Source: Escherichia coli (lineage in GTDB: Bacteria > Pseudomonadota > Gammaproteobacteria > Enterobacterales > Enterobacteriaceae). Taken from it: a stretch of DNA of 64,000 nt. Where the stretch lies: NCBI RefSeq assembly GCF_030013205.1, contig NZ_CP122649.1. One strand, written 5' to 3'. This document shows, one piece after another, positions 9,814 to 30,931 of this stretch; position 1 is the first letter of the stretch; the number at the start of each line of letters is the position of its first letter. The position numbers and the translations under genes were made by a program. The notes under the pieces are model-generated. The model searched no databases and was not told the DNA's origin. It worked only from the letters and a program-made list of their open reading frames with translations.

Positions 9814-10176
9814 ATGAGCGCCTACACGGTATCGCAACTGGCCCATAACGCTGGGGTGAGCGTACATATCGTGCGCGACTACCTGGTGCGCGGCTTGTTA
9901 CGGCCGGTGGCCTGCACCACGGGCGGCTACGGCGTGTTCGACGATGCGGCCTTGCAACGGCTGTGCTTCGTGCGCGCGGCCTTCGAGGCGGGTATCGGCC
10001 TGGATGCCCTGGCGCGGCTGTGCCGTGCGCTCGACGCAGCGGACGGCGCACAAGCCGCAGCGCAGCTTGCCGTGCTGCGCCAGTTGGTCGAGCGGCGGCG
10101 CGCGGCGTTGGCCCATCTGGACGCGCAACTGGCCTCCATGCCAGCCGAGCGGGCGCACGAGGAGGCATTGCCGTGA
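9814..10176 (+). CDS. merD: MerD co-regulator
   Basis: [40 protein letters not shown]...; AAGGAGG RBS; the track ORF has an upstream extension. Confidence 0.88.
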
Positions 10177-10409
10177 ACGCCCCTGACAAACTGCCGCCCG
10201 AGACGCGCCAACCCGTTTCCGGCTACCTGTGGGGTGCGCTGGCCGTGTTGACCTGCCCCTGCCATCTGCCGATTCTCGCCGCCGTGCTGGCCGGGACGAC
10301 CGCCGGTGCCTTCCTTGGCGAGCATTGGGGTGTTGCCGCGCTCGCGCTGACCGGCTTGTTCGTTCTGGCCGTAACGCGGCTGCTGCGCGCCTTCCGGGGC
10401 GGATCATGA
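10173..10409 (+). CDS. merE: MerE mercury transporter
   Basis: GTG start overlapping merD stop; 78-aa product [41 protein letters not shown]... Confidence 0.85.
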
Positions 10410-11113: not shown

Positions 11114-11187
11114 CAGTTCAATATCAGAAGTGATCTGCACCAATCTCGACTATGCTCAATACTCGTGTGCACCAAAGCGAGGTGAGC

Positions 11188-12439: not shown

Positions 12440-13259
12440 GGCACTGTTGCAAATAGTCGGTGGTGATAAACTTATCATCCCCTTTTGCTGATGGAGCTGC
12501 ACATGAACCCATTCAAAGGCCGGCATTTTCAGCGTGACATCATTCTGTGGGCCGTACGCTGGTACTGCAAATACGGCATCAGTTACCGTGAGCTGCAGGA
12601 GATGCTGGCTGAACGCGGAGTGAATGTCGATCACTCCACGATTTACCGCTGGGTTCAGCGTTATGCGCCTGAAATGGAAAAACGGCTGCGCTGGTACTGG
12701 CGTAACCCTTCCGATCTTTGCCCGTGGCACATGGATGAAACCTACGTGAAGGTCAATGGCCGCTGGGCGTATCTGTACCGGGCCGTCGACAGCCGGGGCC
12801 GCACTGTCGATTTTTATCTCTCCTCCCGTCGTAACAGCAAAGCTGCATACCGGTTTCTGGGTAAAATCCTCAACAACGTGAAGAAGTGGCAGATCCCGCG
12901 ATTCATCAACACGGATAAAGCGCCCGCCTATGGTCGCGCGCTTGCTCTGCTCAAACGCGAAGGCCGGTGCCCGTCTGACGTTGAACACCGACAGATTAAG
13001 TACCGGAACAACGTGATTGAATGCGATCATGGCAAACTGAAACGGATAATCGGCGCCACGCTGGGATTTAAATCCATGAAGACGGCTTACGCCACCATCA
13101 AAGGTATTGAGGTGATGCGTGCACTACGCAAAGGCCAGGCCTCAGCATTTTATTATGGTGATCCCCTGGGCGAAATGCGCCTGGTAAGCAGAGTTTTTGA
13201 AATGTAAGGCCTTTGAATAAGACAAAAGGCTGCCTCATCGCTAACTTTGCAACAGTGCC
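12440..13259 (+). mobile_element. IS26 copy 2 (820 bp, Tnp26 with G at position 184)
   Basis: Terminal repeats GGCACTGTTGCAAA; position-184 codon is GGC, unlike copies 1 and 3. Confidence 0.95.
12503..13207 (+). CDS. tnp26: IS26 transposase Tnp26
   Basis: Same 234-aa product as the other copies except residue 184. Confidence 0.95.
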   Translation: MNPFKGRHFQRDIILWAVRWYCKYGISYRELQEMLAERGVNVDHSTIYRWVQRYAPEMEKRLRWYWRNPSDLCPWHMDETYVKVNGRWAYLYRAVDSRGRTVDFYLSSRRNSKAAYRFLGKILNNVKKWQIPRFINTDKAPAYGRALALLKREGRCPSDVEHRQIKYRNNVIECDHGKLKRIIGATLGFKSMKTAYATIKGIEVMRALRKGQASAFYYGDPLGEMRLVSRVFEM

Positions 13260-13519
13260 CATTTATGAATGTTCCTGTTATGGCTTATGTTCAAGAAAGC
13301 ATTGCCCCTGAAATGATGGGCAAGGTGTTTTCCCTTTTGATGACCGCCATGACTCTTTCTATGCCGATAGGCTTACTTGTTGCAGGTCCGGTTGTTGAGG
13401 TTATAGGTGTTAATACATGGTTTTTCTGGTCTGGTGTTGCGTTGATAGTAAACGCTGTTCTCTGCCGCATTCTGACACGACGCTATGACAAAGTAACAAT
13501 GAAACCGCAAGTGGACTGA
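13260..13519 (+). pseudogene. mef(B): 3' remnant (260 bp) of macrolide efflux MFS gene mef(B), truncated by IS26
   Basis: Hydrophobic MFS C-terminus abutting IS26; matches the known IS26 / mef(B) remnant / sul3 arrangement. Confidence 0.55.
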
Positions 13520-13664
13520 AAAAAGGACCGGGTTGATGATAATTTGTAGTGGTGAGCTTCTGGGAGTACAAAACAAAGTGCTCAAAATTGTCGGGCTCAT
13601 GGCGTTTAACGGTATTAATTTCGCTTATAATAATCTTTCTATAATAGCCTAAAGGAGAATATCT

Positions 13665-14528
13665 ATGATACCTAATAGCGAAAATAAAAGAGTATGGTTT
13701 ATTACCGGAGCAAGCAAGGGGCTTGGCTATGCTTTTACATGCGCCGCCTTGAAAGCCGGGGATAAAGTTGTTGCAGTTGCAAGGACTATCGATAATTTGG
13801 CGAAGCTAGAAGAAACATATCAAGAGAGCTTACTGCCATTAAACCTCGATGTTACAGATAGGGAGGCTGTTTTTTCTACGGTTGAAACAGCAGTTAAACA
13901 TTTCGGTAGGCTTGATATTGTTGTTAATAATGCGGGTATCATGACTATGGGTATGATTGAAGAACTAAACGAATCCGATGCTCGGAAACTAATGGACACA
14001 AACTTTTTTGGAGCTCTTTGGGTTTGTCAGGCAGTGATGCCCTATTTGAGGTCGCAGCGTTCTGGACATATCATACAGATTACAAGCATTGGCGCTATTA
14101 TCTCGGGTCCGATGTCTGGTATTTACAGTGCAAGTAAATTTGCGCTGGAAGGAATGAGTGAAGCCTTAGCAAAAGAAGCGGAACATTTCGGAGTGAAACT
14201 CACTATGGTGGAACCAGGAGGATATTGGACAGATTTATACACTTCGATGAGTTACAGCAATCCATTAGATTCATACGGTACACTGCGCGATGAGCTGGCG
14301 AAACAGTATTCCGAAGATTCGGTCGATAGTGATCCTTCCTTGGCAGCGGAAGCCCTTATGAAATTAGTAGCCAGCAATAATCCGCCTTTGAGGCTTATCC
14401 TTGGCAGCATGGTATACGATTTGGCGATGGATACCTTAAAAGCACGGATGGCTACCTGGGAAGAATGGGAAGCTGTTAGCCGTGCATCAGAAAAGGCTAT
14501 TCCTGCACCGGAGAGATATGGAGTATAA
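13665..14528 (+). CDS. SDR-family short-chain dehydrogenase/reductase
   Basis: 287 aa; glycine-rich NAD(P)-binding motif FITGASKGLG, NNAG, catalytic Y..K (YSASK). Confidence 0.75.
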   Translation: MIPNSENKRVWFITGASKGLGYAFTCAALKAGDKVVAVARTIDNLAKLEETYQESLLPLNLDVTDREAVFSTVETAVKHFGRLDIVVNNAGIMTMGMIEELNESDARKLMDTNFFGALWVCQAVMPYLRSQRSGHIIQITSIGAIISGPMSGIYSASKFALEGMSEALAKEAEHFGVKLTMVEPGGYWTDLYTSMSYSNPLDSYGTLRDELAKQYSEDSVDSDPSLAAEALMKLVASNNPPLRLILGSMVYDLAMDTLKARMATWEEWEAVSRASEKAIPAPERYGV

Positions 14529-14565
14529 TACCAAACATGGTTTTTGAGGCAAGGACGAAACTATC

Positions 14566-14811
14566 ATGAAAATTGAAATTATGGAATATAACCCGGATTG
14601 GACAAAGAATTTTGAAGAAGAGAAAATAAAATTGCTCCATTTTTTCGGTTCTCATGCCGTAGCCATTGAACATATCGGAAGCACGGCGATACCCAATCAA
14701 CGGGCGAAACCGGTTATAGATATATTTATTGGCGTTTCGCCTTTTGCTGAACTACCTTTTATCAGCGCATTTTTAATGCAAAGGAGTATCACCACACTCC
14801 GACAGATATGA
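14566..14811 (+). CDS. GrpB-family-like small ORF (probably a truncated fragment)
   Basis: 81-aa ORF with GrpB-like N-terminus; too short for a full GrpB protein. Confidence 0.4.
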   Translation: MKIEIMEYNPDWTKNFEEEKIKLLHFFGSHAVAIEHIGSTAIPNQRAKPVIDIFIGVSPFAELPFISAFLMQRSITTLRQI

Positions 14812-15279
14812 CAGGCAGATATTTGTTTGCAAAATATACAAATGAAGTTTGGACCCATAATCTTCTTGCTTTGGTGTAGGTATAATACCCAAAAACGAAG
14901 TTTATGCGGAACAGGATAACACCTCGAAATCGGAGTTTATATGGCTTCGTGGGGGAGTTATGTGTTTGAGCTTTGTCGCATTAACGCGAATCAGGGGTTG
15001 ACGGCAGAAATAGACTGGAATTACACTTCTTGGAGTCGGCGTTGCCGGAAAATTCTGATTGGATTAGTTGTTCGGGGTGCGAAAACAGTCGTAGTTCGGG
15101 GAAAAAACCGAATTTTGACCCAAAACCGCGAAAAACTCGAAATGACAGTTCCTATCAGTTTTCATAATGAATTAAAACAAAAAAATTAGGCTGCAAAGAT
15201 AGGGAAAATGTGTCAATTTGCGTAAGTGATAATTAGTCAATTAAGATAAATGCTACTTTTGTAATCAAAGCAAAATGAT

Positions 15280-16071
15280 ATGAGCAAGATTTTTGGAATC
15301 GTAAATATAACCACCGATAGTTTTTCCGATGGAGGACTTTATTTAGATACAGATAAGGCAATTGAGCATGCTCTGCATTTGGTTGAAGATGGAGCAGATG
15401 TGATTGATTTGGGAGCCGCTTCCAGTAATCCTGATACAACTGAAGTGGGCGTTGTGGAAGAAATCAAAAGACTCAAACCTGTCATTAAGGCTTTAAAAGA
15501 AAAAGGCATTTCTATTTCTGTTGATACATTTAAACCTGAGGTTCAGAGTTTTTGCATAGAACAAAAGGTTGATTTTATTAATGATATTCAAGGTTTTCCT
15601 TATCCTGAGATTTATTCAGGCTTGGCAAAGTCAGATTGCAAACTTGTGTTGATGCACTCCGTTCAGCGAATTGGTGCAGCTACTAAAGTTGAAACGAATC
15701 CGGAAGAGGTTTTTACTTCCATGATGGAATTTTTTAAAGAAAGAATTGCTGCTTTAGTTGAGGCTGGTGTAAAGCGTGAACGAATTATTCTTGATCCGGG
15801 TATGGGCTTCTTTTTAGGCTCTAATCCAGAAACATCTATTCTTGTTTTGAAGCGTTTCCCTGAAATTCAAGAAGCTTTTAATTTGCAAGTAATGATTGCA
15901 GTGTCACGGAAATCATTCTTAGGTAAAATAACTGGAACCGATGTGAAATCTCGTTTAGCACCAACTCTTGCAGCAGAAATGTATGCATACAAAAAAGGTG
16001 CAGATTATCTCCGCACCCATGATGTTAAGTCTTTATCAGATGCCTTGAAAATATCCAAAGCCCTAGGTTAG
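15280..16071 (+). CDS. sul3: sulfonamide-resistant dihydropteroate synthase Sul3
   Basis: 263-aa product MSKIFGIVNITTDSFSDGGLYLDTDKAIEHALHLVEDGADVIDLGAASSNPDTTEV...; typical qacH-IS440-sul3 context. Confidence 0.85.
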   Translation: MSKIFGIVNITTDSFSDGGLYLDTDKAIEHALHLVEDGADVIDLGAASSNPDTTEVGVVEEIKRLKPVIKALKEKGISISVDTFKPEVQSFCIEQKVDFINDIQGFPYPEIYSGLAKSDCKLVLMHSVQRIGAATKVETNPEEVFTSMMEFFKERIAALVEAGVKRERIILDPGMGFFLGSNPETSILVLKRFPEIQEAFNLQVMIAVSRKSFLGKITGTDVKSRLAPTLAAEMYAYKKGADYLRTHDVKSLSDALKISKALG

Positions 16072-16317
16072 TTTTATTTTTTTAGCTTTCTAAATGAATA
16101 TGCTATACTTGCTCTGAAGTTGTGTTGGCGTACTTGACTTAGGTCTGGATCTTTCGAACTGTTACTAAGAGGGTAATCATAGCCAAACATAAACTGGAAA
16201 TGTCCTAATTCTAAACCTGTTCCAATACCTACACTATAATCAAGAGGACTTAAACTTCCATCACTTCCAAAAGGTTTTGTGTACTTCTCTTGAGTTTTCG
16301 TAGCTAAATAGTAGTGT

Positions 16318-17004
16318 TTGTTGGTAAATCCAAATAATCCAATATTCAATCTTGCGACCGGGAAAGTCCTCTTGAAAGTACCACAAGTTCGCGGGATGGA
16401 GTTTTATCCCAGCTGCATCGAGAAAGGCATGCGCAGTGAGCGTGCTCTCAAGCTCGCCATCGCCGAAATGTATGTCAAAGGAGTAAGTACCCGCAGGGTC
16501 TCGGATATCGTCGAAATTCTTTGTGGCACCGAAGTCAGCTCGTCCCAGGTCAGCAGGCTGGCAAAGGAGCTCGATGAAGAGATTACGTCTTGGAAGGCGC
16601 AGCCTGTCGGACAGATTCAATACTTGGTACTTGATGCGACCTATGAATCGGTTCGCGTCGGTTCCCATGTGGTCAAGCAGGCGCTTCTAGTGGCTATTGG
16701 CGTTGATTACAGCGGGAATCGGCATATTCTTGACGCCGAAGTCGCGAACAGTGAGGCAGAGGTAAACTGGCGTTCCTTTCTCGAGGGTCTCGTACGACGA
16801 GGGATGCACGGCCTGCGAATGATCACCAGTGATGACCACTCAGGACTGCGCGCGGCAATCGATGCTGTCTTCCCTGGAATTCTGTGGCAACGCTGCCAGT
16901 TTCATCTGCAGCAGAATGCCCACTCCTACGTCACGAAAAAAGATGAGATCCCGCTGATAGCCGCTGATATTCGGAAGGTGTTCAATCGGAATATGTCAAG
17001 ATAG
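16318..17004 (+). pseudogene. IS256-family transposase fragment (IS440-like), N-terminus missing
   Basis: C-terminal DDE region ...ERALKLAIAEMYVKGVSTRRVSD...WQRCQFHLQQNA...; fragment length only. Confidence 0.55.
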
Positions 17005-17250
17005 TTTATGCCAGATTTTTGAGAGGTTTGCATCAAGCAGCCTTCGAAAGAGGACGGCATGACATTGAGACCGGCAAGGCGTCGTAGATACGCACTTTCC
17101 CAGTACGCCACCGTAAGGGGTTTTTCTCTTTGGCAGCAAGAATGGTTTGGTTTCTTTTTTCCTCGGCGCCGTAGGCGTCCGACTAACACCTGAATTAAGC
17201 CGCGCCGCGAAGCGGCGTCGGCTTGAATGAACTGTTAGATGCCAGCCCGA

Positions 17251-17583
17251 TCAATGTGCGCTGACCTTGGATAGCAGATTTAGAACGGCGACGCCACTAA
17301 CGATAAGTCCCATGCCAACGAACGCCCACAAGTCTAGTTTCTGGCCATGGAAGATCCAAGCGATAGCTGCCACAAGTACGATGCCGAGGCCAGCCCAAAC
17401 AGCATAAGCAATGCCGACCGGGATGGACTTGAGTGCGAGAGAGAGGAAATAGAACGCAAGCCCGTAGCCAGCCACAACTACAACAGAAGGAACTAACTTG
17501 GTGAATCCATGGCTGGACTTCAGTGCGGAAGTTGCGACGACCTCACCAAATATTGCAATAGCCAGAAAGAGCCAGTTCTTCAC
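17251..17583 (-). CDS. qacH: SMR-family quaternary ammonium compound efflux protein (qacH/qacL type)
   Basis: 110-aa product from GTG start [24 protein letters not shown]...; four TM segments. Confidence 0.75.
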
Positions 17584-17752
17584 GTGCAATCTCCTCTACG
17601 GTATGAAGGATAAATAGTGGTGGCTATGAGTTGCCAAAAACAGTCTTGCGGCTGTCGATTTTCTGTGAGCATACGCAACGCCAAATCTGGCATCTAACGC
17701 TTGAGTTAAGCCGCGCCGCGAAGCGGCGTCGGCTTGAACGAATTGTTAGACA

Positions 17753-18544
17753 TTATTTGCCGACTACCTTGGTGATCTCGCCTTTCACGTAGTGAACAAA
17801 TTCTTCCAACTGATCTGCGCGGGAGGCCAAGCGATCTTCTTCTTGTCCAAGATAAGCCTGTCTAGCTTCAAGTATGACGGGCTGATACTGGGCCGGCAGG
17901 CGCTCCATTGCCCAGTCGGCAGCGACATCCTTCGGCGCGATTTTGCCGGTTACTGCGCTGTACCAAATGCGGGACAACGTAAGCACTACATTTCGCTCAT
18001 CGCCAGCCCAGTCGGGCGGCGAGTTCCATAGCGTTAAGGTTTCATTTAGCGCCTCAAATAGATCCTGTTCAGGAACCGGATCAAAGAGTTCCTCCGCCGC
18101 TGGACCTACCAAGGCAACGCTATGTTCTCTTGCTTTTGTCAGCAAGATAGCCAGATCAATGTCGATCGTGGCTGGCTCGAAGATACCTGCAAGAATGTCA
18201 TTGCGCTGCCATTCTCCAAATTGCAGTTCGCGCTTAGCTGGATAACGCCACGGAATGATGTCGTCGTGCACAACAATGGTGACTTCTACAGCGCGGAGAA
18301 TCTCGCTCTCTCCAGGGGAAGCCGAAGTTTCCAAAAGGTCGTTGATCAAAGCTCGCCGCGTTGTTTCATCAAGCCTTACGGTCACCGTAACCAGCAAATC
18401 AATATCACTGTGTGGCTTCAGGCCGCCATCCACTGCGGAGCCGTACAAATGTACGGCCAGCAACGTCGGTTCGAGATGGCGCTCGATGACGCCAACTACC
18501 TCTGATAGTTGAGTCGATACTTCGGCGATCACCGCTTCCCTCAT
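17753..18544 (-). CDS. aadA1: aminoglycoside 3''-adenylyltransferase AadA1
   Basis: 263-aa product MREAVIAEVSTQLSEVVGVIERHLEPTLLAVHLYGSAVDGGLKPHSDIDLLV... Confidence 0.9.
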   Translation of the reverse strand: MREAVIAEVSTQLSEVVGVIERHLEPTLLAVHLYGSAVDGGLKPHSDIDLLVTVTVRLDETTRRALINDLLETSASPGESEILRAVEVTIVVHDDIIPWRYPAKRELQFGEWQRNDILAGIFEPATIDIDLAILLTKAREHSVALVGPAAEELFDPVPEQDLFEALNETLTLWNSPPDWAGDERNVVLTLSRIWYSAVTGKIAPKDVAADWAMERLPAQYQPVILEARQAYLGQEEDRLASRADQLEEFVHYVKGEITKVVGK

Positions 18545-18636
18545 GATGTTTAACGCCTGAGCTCAGCCGACCGAAACCGCGTAGCGGTTTTGGGTCGGCT
18601 GCAGCGATTTGTTGGGCGATAGCTTGCCACATTCTC

Positions 18637-19893
18637 TCAACGATTGGGATTTGATGTACTTTCCGCACTTTGTAGCGCGACCACATCATGCTCCCCCTGG
18701 CCGCGAGAGCCCTTCACTCGGGAAACACAAGACAGACCGAGCACGACTGTTGCAAGGGTCAAACAGTACACGACAACCGGCCAAGCCGTGTTGCGCGGCA
18801 ACAGCGAAATGATCAACGTTCCGATGCTTCCTAGCAGTACACCGCCCAAGCAGAAGTAGACTGCCGTGACCGTTCCAGCAACATGGTCGAATCCTCGAAG
18901 AGCGCCATTGGGCGCCACAGATACCGCTGTGGCGACACCAATACCCACTAGCCACATTGGAGCAATAAAGCCTAACACGGACTGCAAAGCCCATATTTCG
19001 GTGATGGCAAGCAATACTGCTCCAGCTATCAGGCATCCCATTCCCATTCGCAAGACACTTGGGCTGCCCCACTTGGGTATCACACGCCCCATAAAACGAG
19101 CCGTAAACACCATGGCAATTGCCACTGTGGCGAACAGCAGGCTGAAGCCAAGCTGAGACACACCTTGCCTGCCCATCATTAGTCCGGGCGCAATGGAGAA
19201 AAAGACGAAGAAGCTACCCATTCCAGCGGCGTAACACAACGTGTACAACCAGAAGTTCAGGCACTTAACGGGGAGTAGCAGCTGCGACCATTGCAAGCCC
19301 GCAACTCGTTGCACCCGGGTTTCAGGCCAGAATCGCCACGCTGCTGCAGATGCAGCGATCATGCCCAAACCTAGAAACGCAAAGATAGCCCGCCACCCAA
19401 GCCACATGTCGACGAGCGCTCCGAGCAATGGGCCTACCGCCGGGACCATGGCCAGCATGGATCCGAGTATGCCGTAAATGACATTACTTTCCTCGCGACC
19501 TGCGTAAATGTCACGTACTGTTGCAAATGTGGAAACAAGGCACGCCGAGGCACCACAAGCCTGAAGAATCCGAAGCCCCAGAAAGACTTCAGCCGATGAC
19601 GTAAGAGCGAGGCCCATTGACGCCACAACGTAGGCGAGGCCACCTCCCAGTAGAACGGGGCGGCGCCCCAGTCGGTCCGATAGCGGTCCAAACAAGAGCT
19701 GACCGGCACCAATCATGACCAAGTACGTTGTCAGCGTAAGCTGAATTGTGCTCGCTGTCGTACCAAGCGCGTTTGGCATAAACGGCACTGCTGGCAAGTA
19801 CATGTCCATGCCGAGTGATGCCAATAAATCGAACGGTGATAACAACAACACCGTGGCGGCAAGGGAGTACCGCCAACTAAAGTTTTTTGAGCT
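18637..19893 (-). CDS. cmlA1: chloramphenicol efflux MFS transporter CmlA1
   Basis: 419-aa product from GTG start (V)SSKNFSWRYSLAATVLLLSPFDLLASLGMDMYLPAVPFM...; the track ORF includes a 16-codon leader. Confidence 0.85.
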   Translation of the reverse strand, partial: SSKNFSWRYSLAATVLLLSPFDLLASLGMDMYLPAVPFMPNALGTTASTIQLTLTTYLVMIGAGQLLFGPLSDRLGRRPVLLGGGLAYVVASMGLALTSSAEVFLGLRILQACGASACLVSTFATVRDIYAGREESNVIYGILGSMLAMVPAVGPLLGALVDMWLGWRAIFAFLGLGMIAASAAAWRFWPETRVQRVAGLQWSQLLLPVKCLNFWLYTLCYAAGMGSFFVFFSIAPGLMMGRQGVSQLGFSLLFATVAIAMVFTARFMGRVIPKWGSPSVLRMGMGCLIAGAVLLAITEIWALQSVLGFIAPMWLVGIGVATAVSVAPNGALRGFDHVAGTVTAVYFCLGGVLLGSIGTLIISLLPRNTAWPVVVYCLTLATVVLGLSCVSRVKGSRGQGEHDVVALQSAESTSNPNR

Positions 19894-20157
19894 CACGAAA
19901 CCATCTCCTTGAACAAAGGATTTGGCGGCGCTCCCGTAGAGCAAAAGGATTCATGAGAACGCCGCAACAACCGAAAAATGAAGGTTGCTGCGGCTTACTT
20001 GTCTGCGTTCTTGGAAGTGCTCATCTGCTGACTATCTCATGATTGAATTTGAATCGTAACAACTTTCAAGCAACTCTGCAAGGAGCCTTATTGTGCGCCC
20101 AACGCCGGAGTTAAGCCGCCGCGCGTAGCGCGGTCGGCTTGAACGAATTGTTAGACA

Positions 20158-20949
20158 TCATTTACCAACTGACTTGATGATCTCGCCTTTCACAAAGCGA
20201 ATAAATTCTTCCAAGTGATCTGCGCGTGAGGCCAAGTGATCTTCTTTTTGTCCCAGATAAGCTTGCTTAGCTTCAAGTAAGACGGGCTGATACTGGGCAG
20301 GTAGGCGTTTTATTGCCCAGTCGGCAGCGACATCCTTCGGCGCGATTTTGCCGGTTATTGCGCTGTACCAAATGCGGGACAACGTAAGCACTACATTTCG
20401 CTCATCGCCGGCCCAGTCGGGCTGCGAGTTCCATAGCTTCAAGGTTTCCCTCAGCGCCTCGAATAGATCCTGTTCAGGAACCGGGTCAAAGAATTCCTCC
20501 GCTGCCGGACCTACCAAGGCAACGCTATGTTCTCTTGCTTTTGTAAGCAGGATAGCTAGATCAATGTCGATCATGGCTGGCTCGAAGATACCCGCAAGAA
20601 TGTCATTGCGCTGCCATTCTCCAAATTGCAGCTCGCGCTTAGCCGGATAACGCCACGGGATGATGTCGTCATGCACGACAAGGGTGACTTCTATAGCGCG
20701 GAGCGTCTCGCTCTCGCCAGGGAAAGCCGAAGCCTCCATAAGGTCATTGAGCAATGCTCGCCGCGTCGTTTCATCAAGCTTTACGGCCACAGTAACCAAC
20801 AAATCAATATCGCTGTATGGCTTCAGGCCGCCATCCACTGCGGAGCCGTACAAATGCACGGCCAGCAACGTTGATTCCAGATGGCGCTCAATGACGCTTA
20901 GCACCTCTGATAGTTGGTTCGAAATTTCGATGGTCACCGCTACCCTCAT
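20158..20949 (-). CDS. aadA2: aminoglycoside 3''-adenylyltransferase AadA2
   Basis: Product MRVAVTIEISNQLSEVLSVIERHLESTLLAVHLYGSAVDGGLKPYSDIDLLV... Confidence 0.9.
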   Translation of the reverse strand: MRVAVTIEISNQLSEVLSVIERHLESTLLAVHLYGSAVDGGLKPYSDIDLLVTVAVKLDETTRRALLNDLMEASAFPGESETLRAIEVTLVVHDDIIPWRYPAKRELQFGEWQRNDILAGIFEPAMIDIDLAILLTKAREHSVALVGPAAEEFFDPVPEQDLFEALRETLKLWNSQPDWAGDERNVVLTLSRIWYSAITGKIAPKDVAADWAIKRLPAQYQPVLLEAKQAYLGQKEDHLASRADHLEEFIRFVKGEIIKSVGK

Positions 20950-21006
20950 GATGTCTAACACCAGAATTAAGCCGCGCCGCGAAGCGGCGTCGGCTTGAAT
21001 GACTTG

Positions 21007-21615
21007 TTAGCGCCCACCTGCGACGCCAACCTCTTGCCACTGATAGTACTGCTTAGTAGCAATGGCCAGCATATCCAGGTCCTCCGGCGTGTCTCCGTAC
21101 GCGTAGATGGTCGGATATGTCGCCAGGTCGTAGCGCTCACGGACCAAGCGAGCCTTCTCCGTCAAGACGCACTGCCGCCCTTCATAGCGGCCCGTTAGGA
21201 TTCCGTCCGACTGTTGCAAGGAAGAACAGATGAGCTCAACGCCGTGCGAGTCGCACCACGGCTCCAAGTAAGCCTCAAGTCCGCCGGAAACAACGACAAC
21301 CTTGTGCCCCTGCGCTTTGTGCCATGCGATGCGCTGCATTGCCTCGCCGCGGAGGGTATTGGGCAGGTAGCTCTGAGCGAAGTCACGACCTTGGGCCTCC
21401 AGGACCGAGGCCGGGATGCCGCTGTAAGCGAAGCGAACGATGACGCGACGGATCAGGGTGCCAGACAAGATCCCAATCTTATACCCAAGCACGAGCGGCG
21501 CCAGAAGCAGTTGTCCCACAAGCAGTCGACGTCGGCTCACGGACCGCCGCACAAAATCCGGCATCGTCTCGCGAGTGGTAATTGTGCCATCGAAGTCAAA
21601 GAGTGCGAGAGACAT
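21007..21615 (-). CDS. psp: HAD-family phosphatase cassette gene (psp)
   Basis: 202 aa, N-terminal DxDGT motif (LFDFDGTIT); sits between estX and aadA2 as in sul3-linked arrays. Confidence 0.7.
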   Translation of the reverse strand: MSLALFDFDGTITTRETMPDFVRRSVSRRRLLVGQLLLAPLVLGYKIGILSGTLIRRVIVRFAYSGIPASVLEAQGRDFAQSYLPNTLRGEAMQRIAWHKAQGHKVVVVSGGLEAYLEPWCDSHGVELICSSLQQSDGILTGRYEGRQCVLTEKARLVRERYDLATYPTIYAYGDTPEDLDMLAIATKQYYQWQEVGVAGGR

Positions 21616-21710
21616 GCGTTGTGGGCGCTAACGCCTTGCTCACCGGAAAATTGCGAGCGCAGCGAGTAATTTTTCCGGTGCAGCAACTTGTTGTACGGTG
21701 CAACCGATAG

Positions 21711-22553
21711 CTATGACGTTTGCCCCTTAATCGCCTGGATAATCCTCGGCCAGTCTTCATGATGCAACTCATGTCCCGTGCCTTCGAGTGTCAGCATTTT
21801 TGAACCACGAATCGCATCTTTCAGTGCCAACCCATGCACATAAGGAAGTACAGGATCCTCCGTGCCGTGAATGATCAAAGTTGGTACAGCTATCTCATTT
21901 AATCTCCCGAGCCATCTCTCGCCACCACCTAAAGTAGTGTGGTTGAATGTTGTCAGGATATTCGGAGTGCGATCAAAATTTAACTCAGCGATGTTTTGTA
22001 TCTTCTCAGCGTCAAAAGCATGCGCAGTACCTGAGTTGATTCGCCACGCTCCGACCTGATACGCGACGACAGCATCTCTATCAGACCAATCCAGCGATTC
22101 CGCCCGTTGGTGATACTCAATGATGGCAGGATCAAAAGCGGGCATATCCGGATCTGCATCTGCAAGCCGTTCTGAAGCAATCAGCGTCAAGCTCTTCACA
22201 CGTTTCGGATACTTGAGAGCTACAAGCTGGGAAAGAAATCCCCCCAAAGACATGCCGACTAAATGAGCAGCTTCCAGACCATAACCATCAATGACGCGAA
22301 CCACATCATCTGCTAATTCTTCAACGGAATATGGAGCCTGACCTGGCTCATAGCTTGTTGATTTCCCGGTATCACGGTGGTCGTACCGGATCACATAGCG
22401 ACCCATTTTGGCAAGTTGGGAACAAAACTCATCAGGCCACCACACCGCAGACGACATTGCCCCCATGATCAGAATAATGGGTTCATGGGCCGGGTCGCCG
22501 AATGATTCGGTATAGAGTGAAATCGCTTTATCAACAACTACCTTTTCTTTCAT
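21711..22553 (-). CDS. estX: alpha/beta-hydrolase cassette gene (estX putative esterase)
   Basis: GxSxG-type nucleophile elbow (GMSLGG); first cassette after attI1; start chosen at MKEKVVV, the track ORF extends further upstream. Confidence 0.7.
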
Positions 22554-22583
22554 ACTTAAATTGCCTTCGAGTTCTACGTACAA

Positions 22584-22650
22584 CTTTGTTTTAGGGCGAC
22601 TGCCCTGCTGCGTAACATCGTTGCTGCTCCATAACATCAAACATCGACCC
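22584..22650 (-). other. attI1 recombination site of the class 1 integron
   Basis: Reverse complement of the 5'-conserved segment ...GCAGTCGCCCTAAAACAAAGTT at the cassette junction. Confidence 0.7.
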
Positions 22651-22719
22651 ACGGCGTAACGCGCTTGCTGCTTGGATGCTCGAGGCATAGACTGTACAAA
22701 AAAACAGTCATAACAAGCC

Positions 22720-23257
22720 ATGAAAACCGCCACTGCGCCGTTACCACCGCTGCGTTCGGTCAAGGTTCTGGACCAGTTGCGTGAGCGCATACGCTACTTG
22801 CATTACAGTTTACGAACCGAACAGGCTTATGTCCACTGGGTTCGTGCCTTCATCCGTTTCCACGGTGTGCGTCACCCGGCAACCTTGGGCAGCAGCGAAG
22901 TCGAGGCATTTCTGTCCTGGCTGGCGAACGAGCGCAAGGTTTCGGTCTCCACGCATCGTCAGGCATTGGCGGCCTTGCTGTTCTTCTACGGCAAGGTGCT
23001 GTGCACGGATCTGCCCTGGCTTCAGGAGATCGGAAGACCTCGGCCGTCGCGGCGCTTGCCGGTGGTGCTGACCCCGGATGAAGTGGTTCGCATCCTCGGT
23101 TTTCTGGAAGGCGAGCATCGTTTGTTCGCCCAGCTTCTGTATGGAACGGGCATGCGGATCAGTGAGGGTTTGCAACTGCGGGTCAAGGATCTGGATTTCG
23201 ATCACGGCACGATCATCGTGCGGGAGGGCAAGGGCTCCAAGGATCGGGCCTTGATGT
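22720..23257 (+). pseudogene. intI1: class 1 integron integrase intI1, truncated after about 179 codons by IS26
   Basis: [53 protein letters not shown]... running into the IS26 terminal repeat at 23258. Confidence 0.9.
22806..22835 (-). promoter_or_regulatory. integron cassette promoter Pc, weak variant (PcW: TGGACA, 17 bp, TAAACT)
   Basis: Reverse complement reads TGGACATAAGCCTGTTCGGTTCGTAAACT inside the intI1 coding region; no TGN extension. Confidence 0.7.
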
Positions 23258-24077
23258 GGCACTGTTGCAAATAGTCGGTGGTGATAAACTTATCATCCCC
23301 TTTTGCTGATGGAGCTGCACATGAACCCATTCAAAGGCCGGCATTTTCAGCGTGACATCATTCTGTGGGCCGTACGCTGGTACTGCAAATACGGCATCAG
23401 TTACCGTGAGCTGCAGGAGATGCTGGCTGAACGCGGAGTGAATGTCGATCACTCCACGATTTACCGCTGGGTTCAGCGTTATGCGCCTGAAATGGAAAAA
23501 CGGCTGCGCTGGTACTGGCGTAACCCTTCCGATCTTTGCCCGTGGCACATGGATGAAACCTACGTGAAGGTCAATGGCCGCTGGGCGTATCTGTACCGGG
23601 CCGTCGACAGCCGGGGCCGCACTGTCGATTTTTATCTCTCCTCCCGTCGTAACAGCAAAGCTGCATACCGGTTTCTGGGTAAAATCCTCAACAACGTGAA
23701 GAAGTGGCAGATCCCACGATTCATCAACACGGATAAAGCGCCCGCCTATGGTCGCGCGCTTGCTCTGCTCAAACGCGAAGGCCGGTGCCCGTCTGACGTT
23801 GAACACCGACAGATTAAGTACCGGAACAACGTGATTGAATGCGATCATGGCAAACTGAAACGGATAATCAACGCCACGCTGGGATTTAAATCCATGAAGA
23901 CGGCTTACGCCACCATCAAAGGTATTGAGGTGATGCGTGCACTACGCAAAGGCCAGGCCTCAGCATTTTATTATGGTGATCCCCTGGGCGAAATGCGCCT
24001 GGTAAGCAGAGTTTTTGAAATGTAAGGCCTTTGAATAAGACAAAAGGCTGCCTCATCGCTAACTTTGCAACAGTGCC
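23258..24077 (+). mobile_element. IS26 copy 3 (820 bp, Tnp26 with N at position 184)
   Basis: Terminal repeats GGCACTGTTGCAAA; followed by TAGCGGGG, identical to the 8 bp preceding copy 1. Confidence 0.95.
23321..24025 (+). CDS. tnp26: IS26 transposase Tnp26
   Basis: 234-aa product; AAC codon at position 184. Confidence 0.95.
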   Translation: MNPFKGRHFQRDIILWAVRWYCKYGISYRELQEMLAERGVNVDHSTIYRWVQRYAPEMEKRLRWYWRNPSDLCPWHMDETYVKVNGRWAYLYRAVDSRGRTVDFYLSSRRNSKAAYRFLGKILNNVKKWQIPRFINTDKAPAYGRALALLKREGRCPSDVEHRQIKYRNNVIECDHGKLKRIINATLGFKSMKTAYATIKGIEVMRALRKGQASAFYYGDPLGEMRLVSRVFEM

Positions 24078-24851
24078 TAGCGGGGTAATGTTGAGGCAGC
24101 GCATGGCTCGGGCAAACTGGGTTTCACCGGGACCAGTGGTAGCGTGCTTATTATTGACTCTGAATACGCTGGCTTTATCGCTGTAAAGGATCATGGGCTT
24201 ACCGTATTTCTCGATATAGCCACGGGTCGCTTCAAAATAGCTAAAGGTGGACTCAGATTTAACAAACAGCAGGTGCATCAGACGACTGGTGGCATCGTCG
24301 ACATATACAAGTGCCGTACAAGGCCGACCCCGGTTTTCAAACCAGTGATGGTCACAGCCGTCAATCTGTATAAGCTCGCCAGTACAGGGCCGCCGGTAAC
24401 GGGGCTGATGAATTTTCGGTGCGCGTTGTCTTCGGGGGATCCAGAGTCCGGCTTTTATCATAAGGCGTCTGATGGTTTCCTTGCCCAGGACCAGACCGTG
24501 AACTTCCTCCAGTTTTTCCCGGGCCAGCGTGGGGCCAAAATCGCGGTAGCGTTCTCGTATGATACTCAGTGCCTGGTCAGTCAGTGATGTGGGCAACAGG
24601 CGGTTGCCAGTGCGACCGCGACTCTGGTTGTTCATACCAAGCGGCCCGGACTGGCGATAACGCTTCAGCAGACGGCTGCAATGACGTGGCGTGATGCCGA
24701 GCATCTCGGCAGCCTGGCCAGGACGCAGGTTACGTTCAACGACATCCTGAAGAATTTTGAGGCGGTTGATTTCTTTCACGGTGAACATCCCGGCGTCATG
24801 TATAGCCATAGAAAACTCCTCATCAGGAAAAGCGAGTCGTTGACTAGGCAT
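24078..24851 (-). pseudogene. 5' half of the integrase-type (ISNCY/IS1202-like) transposase gene split by the IS26-bounded insertion
   Basis: N-terminal HTH plus start of rve core (...ELIQIDGCDHHWFENRGRPCTALVYVDDATSRLMHL...); frame-continuous with 6336-7009; boundaries of the element itself not determined. Confidence 0.75.
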
Positions 24852-25303
24852 ACAGGTTTGAAAACTATAGCCTGGACATTCCTAATGAGCCACAAATAGA
24901 CATTAGCATTGAGCCTCTACACTTAGTGCGTATAAGATGGATTATGTTAAATATGGTGGGTTTGCTCTTAAGTTCATAAGACACTCCCACTAACTGATAA
25001 ATCAATACGTTAGGATTTCTGATCTCCCCTCTCGTTTCTTGCATTAGGTACAGAGTACATTCTCTTCATGTTGTTCTGAGGTGAGCATATCACCTCTGTT
25101 CAGGTGGCCAAATTCAGTGTGCCACTTCAGTATTGATCGGAAGGTCGTTAGTGAACACTCGCACGAAGCGAAATAATTTGCACTATTTTGAAAAGCCAAC
25201 CTGTCGGTTTTTTTGTTATGCGCGCCATTCGCCACTCAGCGCTTTCTTCTGACAGCATGTTGCTTTAATGTAAAATATACTCAGCCTTCTCCGGAGAATC
25301 GAA

Positions 25304-26230
25304 ATGGAACTTCGCCAGTTACGTTATTTTGTCCGTATTGTGGAAACCGGCAGTATGGGCAGCGCGGCGCTTGATCTCGACATCGGTGTCTCAGCGCTCA
25401 GTCAACAGATGACAAGGCTGGAAAATGAACTCGCCATTCGTCTGTTGCAACGAACCTCGCGTGGTGTAACGCCAACTAACTCGGGTCTGGCCTTTTACTC
25501 ACAGGCACAGCTGGCGTTGCGTCATGCTGATGATGCCATTCTTGCTGCGCGCGATGCGCGTCTGTCCGGACACGTCAGCGTCGGTATGGCCCCCAGTACA
25601 GCCTCCGTCCTGGGTGTGCCGTTTATTCATGCCATGCGGGCACATTACGCCGACGTTCGCCTGCATGTGGTGGAAAGCCTGTCAGGTAATCTGGAACGGA
25701 TGATCAACACCCGTCAGATTGATCTGGCCGTTGTTTTTCGGAAAGAAAAGCACCTGCGCTGGAGCGCCAGGCCAGTTCTCGAAGAGCAGCTTTTTCTGAT
25801 TGGCACACATGATCTGCTGACGGATATTCCGGATGACACCATAACCCCTGCTCAACTGGCGAATATTCCCCTGATCATGCCAAGCTCAGGCCACGGCTTG
25901 CGCGGCCTACTGGAGGCTATTAGTCAGGAACACGGGCTGAAGGTTGATATCGCCACGGAAATTGACGGCCTGGCGTTACTGATGCGCGCCGTTGGCAGCG
26001 GACTCGGCGCAACATTACAACCCGGAGCAGCCATTTCGCATCTTGAGAGTGAATCATTAAGAGTGATCGGCATCCATAATCCCATACTCAGTCGCCCCAA
26101 TTTTCTGGTCAGCCTATCGGACGATGAACTCCCACCCGCCGCTCTTGCAGCCCGCGTGATACTTACAAAAGTCATGCGTAAACTTGTTGAAATCGGCCAT
26201 TGGCCGGGCGCAACCATTTACGCTCCCTAA
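25304..26230 (+). CDS. tcuR: LysR-family transcriptional regulator of the tricarballylate/citrate locus
   Basis: 308 aa with LysR HTH (MELRQLRYFVRIVETGSMGSAA...); immediately upstream of tcuABC. Confidence 0.8.
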   Translation: MELRQLRYFVRIVETGSMGSAALDLDIGVSALSQQMTRLENELAIRLLQRTSRGVTPTNSGLAFYSQAQLALRHADDAILAARDARLSGHVSVGMAPSTASVLGVPFIHAMRAHYADVRLHVVESLSGNLERMINTRQIDLAVVFRKEKHLRWSARPVLEEQLFLIGTHDLLTDIPDDTITPAQLANIPLIMPSSGHGLRGLLEAISQEHGLKVDIATEIDGLALLMRAVGSGLGATLQPGAAISHLESESLRVIGIHNPILSRPNFLVSLSDDELPPAALAARVILTKVMRKLVEIGHWPGATIYAP

Positions 26231-26327
26231 ACCCCCCTTTAGTTATTCGTTATAGCGCTTACACAACACATAAATATACACTTCATTTACAAATTTAACA
26301 GACAGTTAAAAGGTAGTGGAGTAGACG

Positions 26328-27729
26328 ATGGTTGATGTACTGGTGATTGGCGGTGGTAATGCCGCGCTATGCGCCGCCTTAACCGCTCGTGAGGCAGGAG
26401 CTTCCGTGCTGCTGTTAGAGGCTGCGCCTAGGGAATGGCGCGGCGGGAATTCCCAACACACGCGCAATTTACGCTGTATGCACGATGCACCACAGGATGT
26501 GCTGGTCGAGAGTTATCCCGAAGAGGAATTCTGGCAGGATCTCTGGCGTGTCACCGAAGGCAATACCAATGAAGCGTTGGCGCGCTTGGTGATTCGAACC
26601 TCTTCCCAGTGTCGTGACTGGATGCGTAAGCATGGGGTTAATTTTCAGCCTCCGCTTTCCGGCGCGCTGCATGTGGCGCGCACCAATGCCTTCTTCATGG
26701 GCGGTGGTAAAGCCCTCGTGAACGCCTATTACCGCAGTGCAGAAAAGCTGGGGGTACAGATTCGCTACAGCACGCCGGTACAGGCGCTTGAATTGCACAA
26801 CGGCAAATTCGTCGCAGCCCTGGCAGGTCACGAACGCATTGAGGCGAAAGCCTGCGTACTCGCCGCCGGCGGGTTTGAATCCAACCGTGAATGGCTACGC
26901 GACGCCTGGGGAGAGAACACTCGTGGCGAATGGCCAGCCGATAATTTCCTTATCCGCGGCACCCGCTTTAATCAGGGCGTCTTGCTCAAATTTATGATCA
27001 ATGCCGGGGCAGACATTATCGGTGATCCGTCTCAGTCCCACTGTGTGGCGATCGACGCACGGGCACCGTTGTACGACGGCGGAATTTGTACCCGCGTGGA
27101 TTGTGTCTCACTGGGTGTGGTAGTTAACCGGGATGCAGAACGCTTTTACGATGAAGGGGAAGATTTTTGGCCGAAACGCTATGCCATCTGGGGACGACTG
27201 GTTGCCCACCAACCGGGGCAGATTGGCTACTCCATTATCGACAGCAAAGCGATCGGTCACTTTATGCCGCCAGTTTTCCCCGGCGCACAGGCCAATACGC
27301 TAAGAGATCTGGCCCGCCAGTTGGGGCTGGATCCCGAACACTTTACCCACACCGTGGAACACTACAATCAGGCCTGTCAGCTGGGTCAGTTTGATCACAC
27401 TAAGCTGGACAACTGCGCGACGCAGGGCCTGACGCCACCGAAAACTCACTGGGCACGGCCTATTGATACCCCCCTACTACGGTTATGCCCTGCGACCAGG
27501 GATCACCTTTACCTATCTCGGACTGAAAGTGAATGAACACGCTGCGGTCCATTTCGCAGGCACGCCCAGCTGTAACCTTTTCGTTGCCGGTGAAATGATG
27601 GCTGGCAACGTACTGGGCAAGGGCTATACCGCCGGGGTCGGCATGTCCATTGGCACCACGTTTGGTCGCATCGCAGGTAAAGAAGCCGCGCAGGCAGCAC
27701 GCAAGGAGGCGCATCATGAAGCAGCTTGA
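26328..27729 (+). pseudogene. tcuA: FAD-dependent tricarballylate dehydrogenase TcuA, reading frame shifted near 27469-27474
   Basis: FAD-binding N-terminus VLVIGGGNAALCAALTA; C-terminal 88 aa continue in the +1 frame (track ORF 27463-27729) after a run of six C. Confidence 0.75.
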
Positions 27730-28855
27730 AAAGTTGATTATCGAGGCCAAAATTCTCACCGAACCAGAGGCTGAAGTCGAGCGGGTGATGCAGGTTTGTA
27801 ACGCATGTCGCTACTGTGAAGGATTTTGCGCCGTGTTCCCGGCAATGACTCAACGACTGGAATTTGGCAAAGCCGACATTAACTATCTGGCAAACCTGTG
27901 CCATAACTGCGGCGCTTGCCTGCACGCCTGCCAGTATGCTCCACCCCATGAGTTTGCGATCAACGTGCCGAAAGCAATGGCGGAAGTGCGTCTGGAAACG
28001 TATCAACACTACGCGCAACCGGCGGCCTTCGGAGCGCTGTATCGCCAGGCTGGCGTTACCGTGACGCTGGCACTGGTCTTTAGTCTGATCCTCTTTTTAC
28101 TCCTCGCGATGGGGCTAAAGGGATCGCTACTCCATCCGCCGCTGGCCGGTGATTTCTACCAAATCTTCCCGCACAACCTGCTGGCATGGATGTTTGGATC
28201 GGTTTTCATGCTGGCGATCGGTTTACTAATGGCAGGGGTGATCCGCTTCTGGCGCGAGATCTCTCCCGTCGGGCCGCGTCCGGCGGAAATTGCCGAAGCG
28301 TCGCACAACGCGCTGACGCTGAAATACCTCGACGGCGGACATGGAAAAGGCTGCAACGAGGCGGACGATGCTTTCACATTGATGCGTCGTCGTTTCCACC
28401 ATTTCACCTTCTACGGCTTTATGCTCTGTTTCGCCGCGACCGTGGTGGCGACGGGTTACCACTACTTCGCCGGCTGGGAAGCCCCCTACCCGTTCTTCAG
28501 CGTGCCGGTCATGCTTGGCACGCTCGGAGGAATCGGTTTAATTGTCGGCCCGGCAGGCCTGCTGTGGTTAAACCTTAAGCGCTCGTCACTGCATGGCGAC
28601 GCGCGACAGAAACCGATGGATCGCGGTTTTATTTTACTGCTGCTCCTGACCAGCCTGACCGGTATAGGTTTGCTGGCGGGAAGAGACACCTCATGGATGG
28701 GGATCCTGCTTGCCATCCATCTTGGTGTGGTCATGGCGCTTTTTTTGACCATTCCATACGGAAAATTTGCCCACGGATTTTACCGCTGCGCGTCTTTACT
28801 CAAATGGGCGATTGAGAAGCGACGTGGAAAACAGGCGGGGGTCGCAGGCGACTAA
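27716..28855 (+). CDS. tcuB: TcuB (membrane iron-sulfur protein; plasmid CitB homolog)
   Basis: 379-aa product [42 protein letters not shown]... with Cys clusters and TM segments. Confidence 0.8.
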
Positions 28856-28909
28856 CCCGCAAACTCTTACCTCTATACATAATTATGATAAGACAGTGGA
28901 GCAACTTCA

Positions 28910-30205
28910 ATGACTCAACAACCATCGCGCGCTGGCACGTTCGGCGCAATACTGCGTGTGACCAGCGGTAATTTTCTCGAACAGTTCGATTTTTTCCTGT
29001 TTGGTTTTTACGCCACTTATATCGCAAAGACGTTTTTTCCTGCCGAAAGTGAGTTTGCCGCATTAATGCTTACTTTTGCCGTTTTTGGCTCCGGATTTTT
29101 AATGCGCCCTATCGGGGCCGTGGTGTTGGGCGCATATATCGACAGGATCGGCCGACGGAAAGGGCTGATGATCACCCTGGCGATTATGGGCTGCGGCACG
29201 TTGCTCATCGCCCTCGTGCCGGGTTATCAGACTATCGGCCTGCTGGCTCCCGTGCTGGTCCTGGTGGGGCGTCTGCTACAGGGATTTTCTGCTGGCGTCG
29301 AACTGGGCGGCGTCTCTGTTTATCTTTCTGAGATCGCCACGCCAGGCAATAAAGGCTTTTACACCAGTTGGCAATCGGCCAGCCAGCAGGTGGCGATTGT
29401 CGTCGCAGCGCTGATCGGCTACGGTCTGAATGTCACGCTGGGACACGATGAAATCTCCGAATGGGGTTGGCGAATCCCGTTCTTCATTGGCTGCATGATT
29501 ATTCCGCTGATTTTTGTTCTTCGACGTTCGCTACAGGAAACTGAAGCCTTTTTACAACGTAAACACCGTCCGGACACCCGGGAAATTTTTACCACCATTG
29601 CTAAAAACTGGCGCATCATCACCGCGGGTACCCTGCTGGTGGCGATGACGACCACGACCTTTTATTTTATTACTGTCTATACCCCCACTTACGGGAGAAC
29701 GGTGTTGAACCTGAGCGCACGTGACAGCCTAGTAGTCACCATGCTGGTAGGGATTTCTAACTTCATCTGGCTGCCGATTGGCGGCGCTATCTCTGATCGG
29801 ATCGGGCGACGCCCGGTGCTGATGGGCATCACCTTGCTCGCCCTCGTCACCACCTTGCCGGTGATGAACTGGCTTACCGCTGCCCCTGACTTCACCCGCA
29901 TGACGCTGGTGCTGCTCTGGTTCTCGTTCTTTTTTGGCATGTATAACGGCGCGATGGTGGCGGCCCTGACTGAAGTGATGCCGGTTTATGTCCGAACTGT
30001 GGGTTTTTCGCTGGCCTTTAGTCTCGCCACGGCGATTTTCGGCGGCCTGACACCAGCCATCTCCACCGCATTGGTCCAGTTGACTGGAGATAAAAGTTCT
30101 CCTGGATGGTGGCTAATGTGCGCTGCGCTGTGCGGACTCGCTGCGACGACAATGCTGTTTGCTCGTCTCAGTAGTGGTTATCAGACAGTAGAGAATAAGC
30201 TCTGA
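28910..30205 (+). CDS. tcuC: citrate/tricarballylate-proton symporter (MFS; TcuC/CitA)
   Basis: 431-aa MFS product [43 protein letters not shown]... Confidence 0.85.
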
Positions 30206-30210
30206 AACGC

Positions 30211-30245
30211 AAGCAGGCAGAGAAATATCTCTGCCTGCTTTCTCC
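30211..30245 (+). terminator. rho-independent terminator after tcuC
   Basis: Perfect stem AAGCAGGCAGAG / CTCTGCCTGCTT followed by TCTCC. Confidence 0.7.
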
Positions 30246-30601
30246 AGTGCGCCGTAAAACCGTGGCCACCGTGACACGGGAGTTACGTAACCGGGCTATA
30301 TGCCAACACTTCAGTGAGTTCGCCGGTGCATCGATGACTGGTTATGCCAGCAATGTTCAGAGGGAAGAATAATAATTGCGCAGGTAACGTAATATTCTCT
30401 TCAGAGATATATCATTTATGAATGAATAAGCTAAGTACTACCGCCTCCGGATGTGGATAAACATGTTCTGTGGCCCTGACAAAGCCTCAGAAGCGCCCCA
30501 CGGCATTTTCAGCAGTTTACAGTACCCGGGGTATCACTATGAGCCGTTTAAGCCAGCACCGGGTAATCGGCTAAATCCAAATTTACTCGATTTAGTTACC
30601 G

Positions 30602-30931
30602 ATGGTTTCGCCTCGAAGATCTGCATCCCTGACTCTACGTTGTCATGGTATTCGACAGGAAAACTATAATGATGCATCTATAGTTGCGATTTTAAACTCA
30701 ACTCAGTTAATGACTCTCATCGTCTCACCGAATCTTCTATCTGAGCTGAAAAATCTATCCATTCAGGAAGGATACATGCTAAAAATAGAAAATGTACTGC
30801 CGCCAAATTTTAGAGTATTCCTGGTCCGCGAAGGTTTCATTTTCCCGGGCGAATCATGGGTGTGTGGTTCCGGGTACTGGTTGCCTGAAAGTGAAGTACT
30901 CAAAAACGGAATCAACTCATTGCTTGTTTAA
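30602..30931 (+). CDS. hypothetical small protein (likely start at internal ATG near 30776, about 51 aa)
   Basis: Track ORF; internal ATG preceded by AGGAAGG; 30-bp gap to the next ORF. Confidence 0.3.
   Translation: MVSPRRSASLTLRCHGIRQENYNDASIVAILNSTQLMTLIVSPNLLSELKNLSIQEGYMLKIENVLPPNFRVFLVREGFIFPGESWVCGSGYWLPESEVLKNGINSLLV

Follow-up and report, generated by a model that had tools for sequence, protein, structure and literature searches.

We examined a locus at positions 25304–30205 of a 64,000-nucleotide stretch of Escherichia coli DNA (NZ_CP122649.1), which is referred to at its full length as the window. An open reading frame (ORF) listing places four genes there, tcuR-tcuA-tcuB-tcuC, all on the plus strand. 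We are confident that these genes constitute the known citrate/tricarballylate cluster (tcuRABC, with tcuC and tcuB also named citA and citB), present as IncHI1 plasmid cargo and with tcuA disrupted in this copy. The original prediction, made from the letters, had described a complete arrangement; the genes, their order, coordinates and strand are borne out, but the completeness is not, since the frame of tcuA is broken at 27469–27474. Assignment of the locus to the tcuRABC tricarballylate utilisation operon stands despite the broken tcuA.

Gene identities and plasmid setting

The gene identities were assigned with NCBIfam profiles at their curated cut-offs (369 bits for TcuA, 524 for TcuB and 445 for TcuC), and all three products scored above these values (Table 1). 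No TcuR-specific NCBIfam model was above cut-off for the tcuR product of the window, which is recognized by its Pfam domains and RefSeq name. Pfam additionally returned FAD_binding_2 for the tcuA product, a flavin adenine dinucleotide (FAD) domain, and MFS_1/Sugar_tr for the tcuC product. The TcuB translation contains two CxxCxxCxxxC motifs of the 4Fe-4S cluster type, and its ATG at 27716, which is preceded at a distance of 6 nucleotides by AAGGAGG, overlaps the original tcuA stop at 27727–27729. The near-identical RefSeq record NZ_CP122645.1 names tcuR, tcuA and tcuB as such. As a separate matter of labelling, RefSeq describes the protein of 28910–30205 as ‘MFS transporter’ only, despite its score against the TcuC model and its membership of the CITA_ECOLX cluster, while a 94%-identical copy on an IncFII plasmid is named TcuC.

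Exact-sequence look-up placed TcuC of the window in the UniRef100 cluster ‘Citrate-proton symporter’ (RepID=CITA_ECOLX), and TcuB in ‘Citrate utilization protein B’ (RepID=CITB_ECOLX). The transporter had been described beforehand as being in the style of the plasmid symporter CitA, and the cluster membership extends that likeness to a match at the level of sequence. Both entries presumably go back to Tn3411 and pWR61, whose sequences date from 1985. Compared with the classical citA-citB determinant, in whose clusters TcuC and TcuB fall, the window adds an upstream tcuR and a frameshifted tcuA; in annotation, citA/citB and tcuC/tcuB should be treated as two names for one pair of genes.

The plasmid setting is clear from NZ_CP122645.1, which is plasmid unnamed2 of E. 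coli ETEC4079, a 216.7-kb IncHI1-type replicon from pig faeces in Belgium (pig enterotoxigenic E. coli, ETEC). The window itself carries trhH, a TraG-like gene and a MobH relaxase, in a backbone syntenic with that of R27. The expected link to the citrate trait of IncH plasmids is thus well founded, both in these backbone genes and in the R27 locus, which is 97.8% identical in nucleotide sequence, and it agrees with the IncHI1 literature. A ‘citrate operon’ is among the variable cargo reported for IncHI1 plasmids, R27 and pB71 included (10.1101/334409), citrate utilisation genes are part of the IncHI1 pan-genome (PMC5390554), and citA and citB have been named on R27 (PMC7366339). The link between H1 plasmids and aerobic growth on citrate goes back to Smith et al. 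1978 (cited in PMC6385356). The feature is therefore already known; the citrate trait of H1 plasmids has been on record from the 1970s on, R27 and related plasmids already have the genes annotated, and the locus has little discovery value.

The tcuA reading frame and its consequence

In the window, tcuA is divided between a 402-residue ORF (26328–27536) and an 88-residue ORF in a different frame (27463–27729). Residues 1–382 of the TcuA product correspond to positions 5–385 of the 467-position NCBIfam model, and the two ORFs are taken as halves of one broken gene because the 88-residue ORF covers model positions 385–465. The break occurs at a poly-C tract that consists of six bases (C6) in the window, seven (C7) in NZ_CP122645.1, and eight (C8) in pB71, where tcuA is intact at 1404 nucleotides; in R27, the tract is interrupted (ACGCCCCCTT) and in frame. 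In nine relatives with the same allele, the tract region is two bases longer than that of the window (C8 in eight, C7 with an extra T in pH226B), and tcuA is in frame in 9/9 carriers, comprising six plasmids and the chromosomes of PSJ-22, P393-F10 and PSS-08-2. Addition of CC to the tract of the window yields a 467-residue protein identical to TcuA of pB71. As it stands, the product comprises 382 native residues and 20 foreign residues before the stop, and its FAD_binding_2 match is shortened from residues 3–429 of intact TcuA to residues 3–354, such that model positions beyond 342 of 414 are lost. As sequenced, tcuA of the window is a pseudogene, and RefSeq tags the gene as ‘frameshifted’ in NZ_CP122645.1.

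We consider the tract lesion to be probably real. The main alternative holds that the locus is fully intact, with the short C tract being a base-calling or assembly error at a homopolymer that truly has eight bases, and with the plasmid conferring both citrate and tricarballylate utilisation. Several sequencing chemistries are notoriously error-prone on long homopolymers, and the window differs from positions 1–64001 of NZ_CP122645.1 solely by one C in this tract; the uniformly in-frame relatives point the same way. However, both versions are out of frame, and no homopolymer elsewhere differs from the relatives, although a census across 24086–64000 counted 17 homopolymers of at least seven bases, another C8 and a C7 among them. 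Within this region, the 34 kb of the window collinear with the pB71 backbone (99.96% identity) align over 34,001 bp without a gap and with 14 mismatches, and the aadA1-cmlA1-aadA2 region is identical to that of many plasmids at 3901/3901 positions with 0 gaps. Together with the equally gap-free region of the adjoining ISNCY element, these alignments indicate a lesion specific to the tcuA tract, and an intact locus is accordingly a possible but doubtful explanation. A generally error-prone assembly, raised by RefSeq ‘frameshifted’ tags on aadA1, aadA2 and tcuA, was ruled out by the same alignments. A further proposal is that the C8 tract is a contingency locus, in which slippage turns tricarballylate oxidation on and off while citrate import is kept on, in which case C6 and C7 would represent a mixed ETEC4079 culture, and plasmid populations would alternate between full tricarballylate/citrate catabolism and citrate import alone. 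Tract lengths of 6, 7 and 8 do occur among sequences that are otherwise 99.9–100% identical, and the C8 of the pB71-type allele is uninterrupted, in contrast to the G-interrupted tract of R27, UTME-7, TW10590 and the IncFII plasmid. Nevertheless, the variation is confined to one plasmid lineage, the other C8-allele carriers being in frame 9/9, and a run of eight bases is short for phase variation to work efficiently in Enterobacteriaceae; we regard a switch as very unlikely.

For a real lesion in tcuA, the consequences can be considered by homology with Salmonella tcuRABC, where the gene functions were defined. According to PMC10468695 (citing Lewis et al. 2004, 2006), TcuA is a tricarballylate dehydrogenase, TcuB an FADH2:quinone oxidoreductase, and TcuC the transporter. 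By analogy, TcuR would activate tcuABC, TcuC would import tricarballylate or citrate together with protons, and TcuA, with its FAD cofactor, would convert tricarballylate to cis-aconitate for entry into the tricarboxylic acid (TCA) cycle; TcuB, with two 4Fe-4S motifs, would reoxidise TcuA and deliver the electrons to the respiratory chain. Because TcuA of the window is truncated within the FAD-binding domain, and would be without the C-terminal part of that domain, tricarballylate oxidation is probably lost in this copy, and the frameshift therefore yields a negative prediction for growth on tricarballylate. In E. coli, taken to be without aerobic citrate import, the transporter alone would be sufficient for the classical plasmid citrate utilisation (Cit+) trait. 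There are 179 untranslated bases between the premature stop and tcuB. Since tcuR, tcuB and tcuC/citA are intact, and tcuB is preceded by a strong ribosome-binding site of its own, this copy may still support citrate uptake, as far as polarity allows. The copy in the window should be recorded as a tcuA pseudogene, with a Cit+ phenotype being no guarantee of tricarballylate use.

Relatives, origin and mobility

Among IncHI1 plasmids, R27 (NC_002305) carries the same four genes, annotated tcuR, tcuA, tcuB and MFS transporter, with 97.8% nucleotide identity over 25000–30440, the same flanks (~24992 to 30440), and the same place beside an ISNCY-family element. R27 differs from the window in having an intact tcuA, and in having neither the IS26 unit described below nor the 489 bp of window 30441–30929. 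The pB71-type plasmids are closer still, with KP899806, pH226B, p14ODMR, p10907_1, pSA20030575.1 and pEcoEC16b matching a 5.5-kb query at 99.9–100% nucleotide identity; TcuR, TcuB and TcuC are identical to those of the window in most of these plasmids, whereas tcuA is intact, with the tract two bases longer, and the ISNCY transposase gene of pB71 is unsplit. A second, independent plasmid context for tcuRABC was seen in pMB3176_2 (segment 6120–11022) and ~15 similar E. coli plasmids, where the locus (94.3% nucleotide identity) lies directly downstream of IncFII repA and is followed by a Tn3-family transposase remnant.

Chromosomal homologues were also compared. Our TcuB genome scan kept 80 loci, with Salmonella not among them; Salmonella was reached by a TcuC protein search and exact-sequence contig look-up, which located the Salmonella enterica chromosomal tcuRABC between fur/fldA and ybfN/chiP. 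Gene order, orientation and overlaps are the same as in the window, and lengths are equal for TcuR (308 residues), TcuA (467, for the intact protein) and TcuB (379), with TcuC differing slightly (434 residues versus 431). Alignment with Salmonella tcuRABC had been proposed as the check on the locus, low identity counting against it; the identities are 78–81% in nucleotides and 83–93% in amino acids, namely 78.4% and 83.4% for tcuR, 80.7% and 91.9% for tcuA, 80.8% and 89.4% for tcuB, and 79.8% and 92.6% for tcuC (TcuC cluster 93%). In other genera, the Citrobacter amalonaticus group reaches 90–91% nucleotide identity, and the remaining Citrobacter loci, like those of Klebsiella and Raoultella, ~80%. 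In E. coli, the locus is rare, occurring on chromosome or plasmid in 32/5,426 complete genomes. The E. coli chromosomal alleles are 95.8% (UTME-7, in the hipA-ydeP region, as in similar strains), 98.5% (TW10590) and 99.6% (PSJ-22) identical to the window, and differ from it in their intact tcuA and in having no adjoining ISNCY element. The left flank of the plasmid module, including a stub of an IS3-family insertion sequence (IS), is also present in TW10590 and PSJ-22. In TW10590, the module has the same extents as on the plasmid (24969–30440), and its right side runs into native E. coli sequence (yde fimbrial genes).

The origin of the module can be judged from these comparisons. The G+C content of the locus is 51–58%, compared to 36–47% for the backbone directly downstream, a contrast as expected of acquired cargo. 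Acquisition from an enterobacterial chromosome, as foreseen in the original prediction, is consistent both with this contrast and with the existence of chromosomal homologues, of which the nearest are in E. coli and not in Salmonella. Salmonella, the classical IncHI1 host, has tcuRABC in the same order, and many carrier plasmids are of Salmonella source; however, capture from its chromosome is hard to reconcile with 78–81% nucleotide identity when the E. coli chromosomal alleles reach 94–99.8% per gene, and with the occurrence of the plasmid flanks (24969–25303 and 30206–30440) in E. coli chromosomes, and we give it next to no probability. The history of the locus is instead that of an Escherichia-type tcu allele, and the alignments suggest an E. 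coli chromosome of TW10590 type as the most likely source of the module. Identity to the window is uneven along the genes, both in R27 (tcuR 99.7%, tcuA 94.8%, tcuB 97.5% and tcuC 99.4%) and in TW10590 (~97% for tcuR and tcuA, 99.4–99.8% for tcuB and tcuC), and this mosaic of allele identities, including those of UTME-7, suggests recombination among Escherichia tcu alleles. As regards mobility, a further explanation would place the locus within an active Tn3411-type composite transposon, with IS3411 copies on both sides, still mobile as a unit. The proteins match the CitA and CitB entries, whose attribution to Tn3411 and pWR61 we presume, and an IS3-family end remnant is present 175 bp upstream of tcuR. 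Yet that 61-bp stub is the only IS3-family trace, and the right side continues straight into IncHI1 backbone common with pB71. In Tn3411, the cit determinant is bracketed by two IS3411 copies; no direct or inverted repeats were found bracketing the tcu locus, and no IS629/IS3411-like terminal repeat was found anywhere in the window with an assumed terminal pattern. The locus is therefore not a Tn3411-type transposon by these signs, and we hold that explanation to be highly improbable.

Several points weigh against the identification of the locus as the known cluster with a disrupted tcuA and a chromosomal E. coli source. The functions of all four genes are inferred from homology. The window and its RefSeq twin disagree at the tract (C6 versus C7), which could mean that base-calling is in doubt there and that the true tract is an in-frame C8. 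The UniRef100 memberships amount to identity only if CITA_ECOLX and CITB_ECOLX are 431 and 379 residues long, as they presumably are. The predicted Cit+ trait may depend on whether citrate acts as an inducer of TcuR-dependent expression, and on polarity of the premature stop on tcuB and tcuC. Finally, capture by the plasmid is the likelier but not the only direction of transfer between it and the E. coli chromosomal copies of 98.5–99.6% identity, the reverse being conceivable for island-borne copies.

Module boundaries, regulatory features and the split transposase

The tcu module is a 5.5-kb accessory segment (~24969–30440) of an IncHI1 conjugative plasmid; features within and beside it are collected in Table 1.

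Table 1. Positions of features of the tcu module and its surroundings in the window (bp, base pairs; aa, amino acids).
Feature	Position	Strand	Basis or content
ISNCY transposase gene, 3′ part	6336–7009	−	RefSeq and reconstruction
8-bp target duplication TAGCGGGG	7002–7009 and 24078–24085		
IS26-bounded multiresistance unit, 17,068 bp	7010–24077		TEM-1, mer remnant, sul3, qacL, aadA1, cmlA1, aadA2, estX, truncated intI1
IS26, left end of unit, abuts ISNCY 3′ part	7010–7829		
IS26, third copy, inside unit	12440–13259		
IS26, right end of unit, cuts ISNCY gene	23258–24077	+	820 bp, 14-bp inverted repeats at both ends
ISNCY-family element, 5′ part	24078–24968 (transposase N-terminal coding part 24078–24851)	−	RefSeq ‘ISNCY family transposase, incomplete’; HTH domains
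Left flank travelling with locus	24969–25303		Common to PSJ-22 and TW10590 chromosomes; BLAST break-points
IS3-family left-end stub, 61 bp, ISEc52/IS911-like	25069–25129	−	Elsewhere directly upstream of IS3-family transposase gene
tcuR, LysR-type regulator, 308 aa	25304–26230	+	Pfam HTH_1 and LysR_substrate; RefSeq name TcuR
tcuR-tcuA spacer, predicted regulatory region	26231–26327	+	Alignment, 11 loci, 7 genera
tcuA, FAD-dependent tricarballylate dehydrogenase, disrupted	26328–27729	+	NCBIfam NF006130, 636 bits
Poly-C tract C6, site of 2-base loss	27469–27474	+	Alignment with relatives
Premature tcuA stop	27534–27536	+	ORF listing
tcuB/citB, membrane 4Fe-4S protein, 379 aa from ATG	27716–28855	+	NCBIfam NF011607, 709 bits
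tcuC/citA, MFS (MHS-family) proton symporter, citrate/tricarballylate, 431 aa, last gene	28910–30205	+	NCBIfam NF011656, 729 bits
Perfect 12-bp stem-loop, terminator-like, weak T tail	30212–30239	+	Directly after tcuC stop, read from sequence

On the left of the module, homology native to the region upstream of tcuR begins at ~25152–25201 in BLAST comparisons with other loci, and a promoter-like site occurs at 25249–25276. The 61-bp stub that precedes it contains an internal hairpin (GAGGTGA-N5-TCACCTC) and is widespread, being found in ~2,450 PLSDB plasmids and 4,051/5,426 complete E. coli genomes; it accompanies the tcu module both on IncHI1 plasmids and in the chromosomes of TW10590 and PSJ-22. 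Its candidacy as an IS3411 relic of Tn3411 was rejected, the repeat being the end of an ISEc52/IS911-like element of the IS3 family with no IS629/IS3411-like terminus. The spacer between tcuR and tcuA contains blocks that are invariant in 11 loci of 7 genera (Escherichia to Pluralibacter), namely CTAAA-N6/7-TTTAG over the tcuR stop and TTACAAATTTAAC, with GTTAAA as a further conserved motif. We infer that the conserved blocks are candidate TcuR-binding or promoter elements for tcuA, and since the motifs are conserved, the regulatory region is apparently intact. Downstream of tcuC, the stem-loop listed in Table 1 was not flagged by a simple terminator scan, and an Rfam search of the locus for structured RNA or riboswitches returned only chance-level hairpin matches, that stem-loop included.

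The original prediction had also placed the locus directly beside a split transposase gene, and its truncated part indeed lies 452 bp upstream of tcuR. This gene belongs to the ISNCY-family element, the outer end of whose 5′ part (24968) was set by the homology break against E. coli chromosomal copies; the opposite end of the element yielded no convincing inverted repeat. Deletion of 7010–24085 in silico restored an intact transposase gene and 2701/2701 identity with pB71. Because of this exact restoration, and the 8-bp duplication, the ISNCY gene is concluded to have been split by insertion of the IS26-bounded unit, and the neighbouring transposase gene thus documents a clean insertion event in which IS26 brought in the 17-kb resistance unit.

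Within that unit, aadA1 (17706–18544) and the aadA2-type gene (20111–20949) are tagged ‘frameshifted’ by RefSeq, while the same DNA (100% identical, gap-free) is annotated as intact in many plasmids; the tags seem to stem from the annotation and not from any lesion. The ISNCY elements beside tcuR also differ between plasmids, with window 24086–24968 being ~72% identical in nucleotides to R27 segment 4448–5969, compared to 97.8% for the adjoining tcu DNA, although the two share the same junction and ~40 bp of terminal sequence (GATTATGTTAAATATGGTGGGTTTG...). Two separate insertions at a single hot spot could account for this difference, as could the exchange of one element for the other. On the other side, the right edge of the tcu module is abutted by the 489-bp segment at 30441–30929, which has small ORFs (in pB71, a 109-residue hypothetical protein) and is present in the window and pB71 but not in R27. 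Beyond the resistance unit, a gene of the Shedu immune nuclease family (anti-phage defence; 5267–6067, minus strand) is situated with IS1 on one side and the distal end of the ISNCY element on the other, and it is present in pB71 too.

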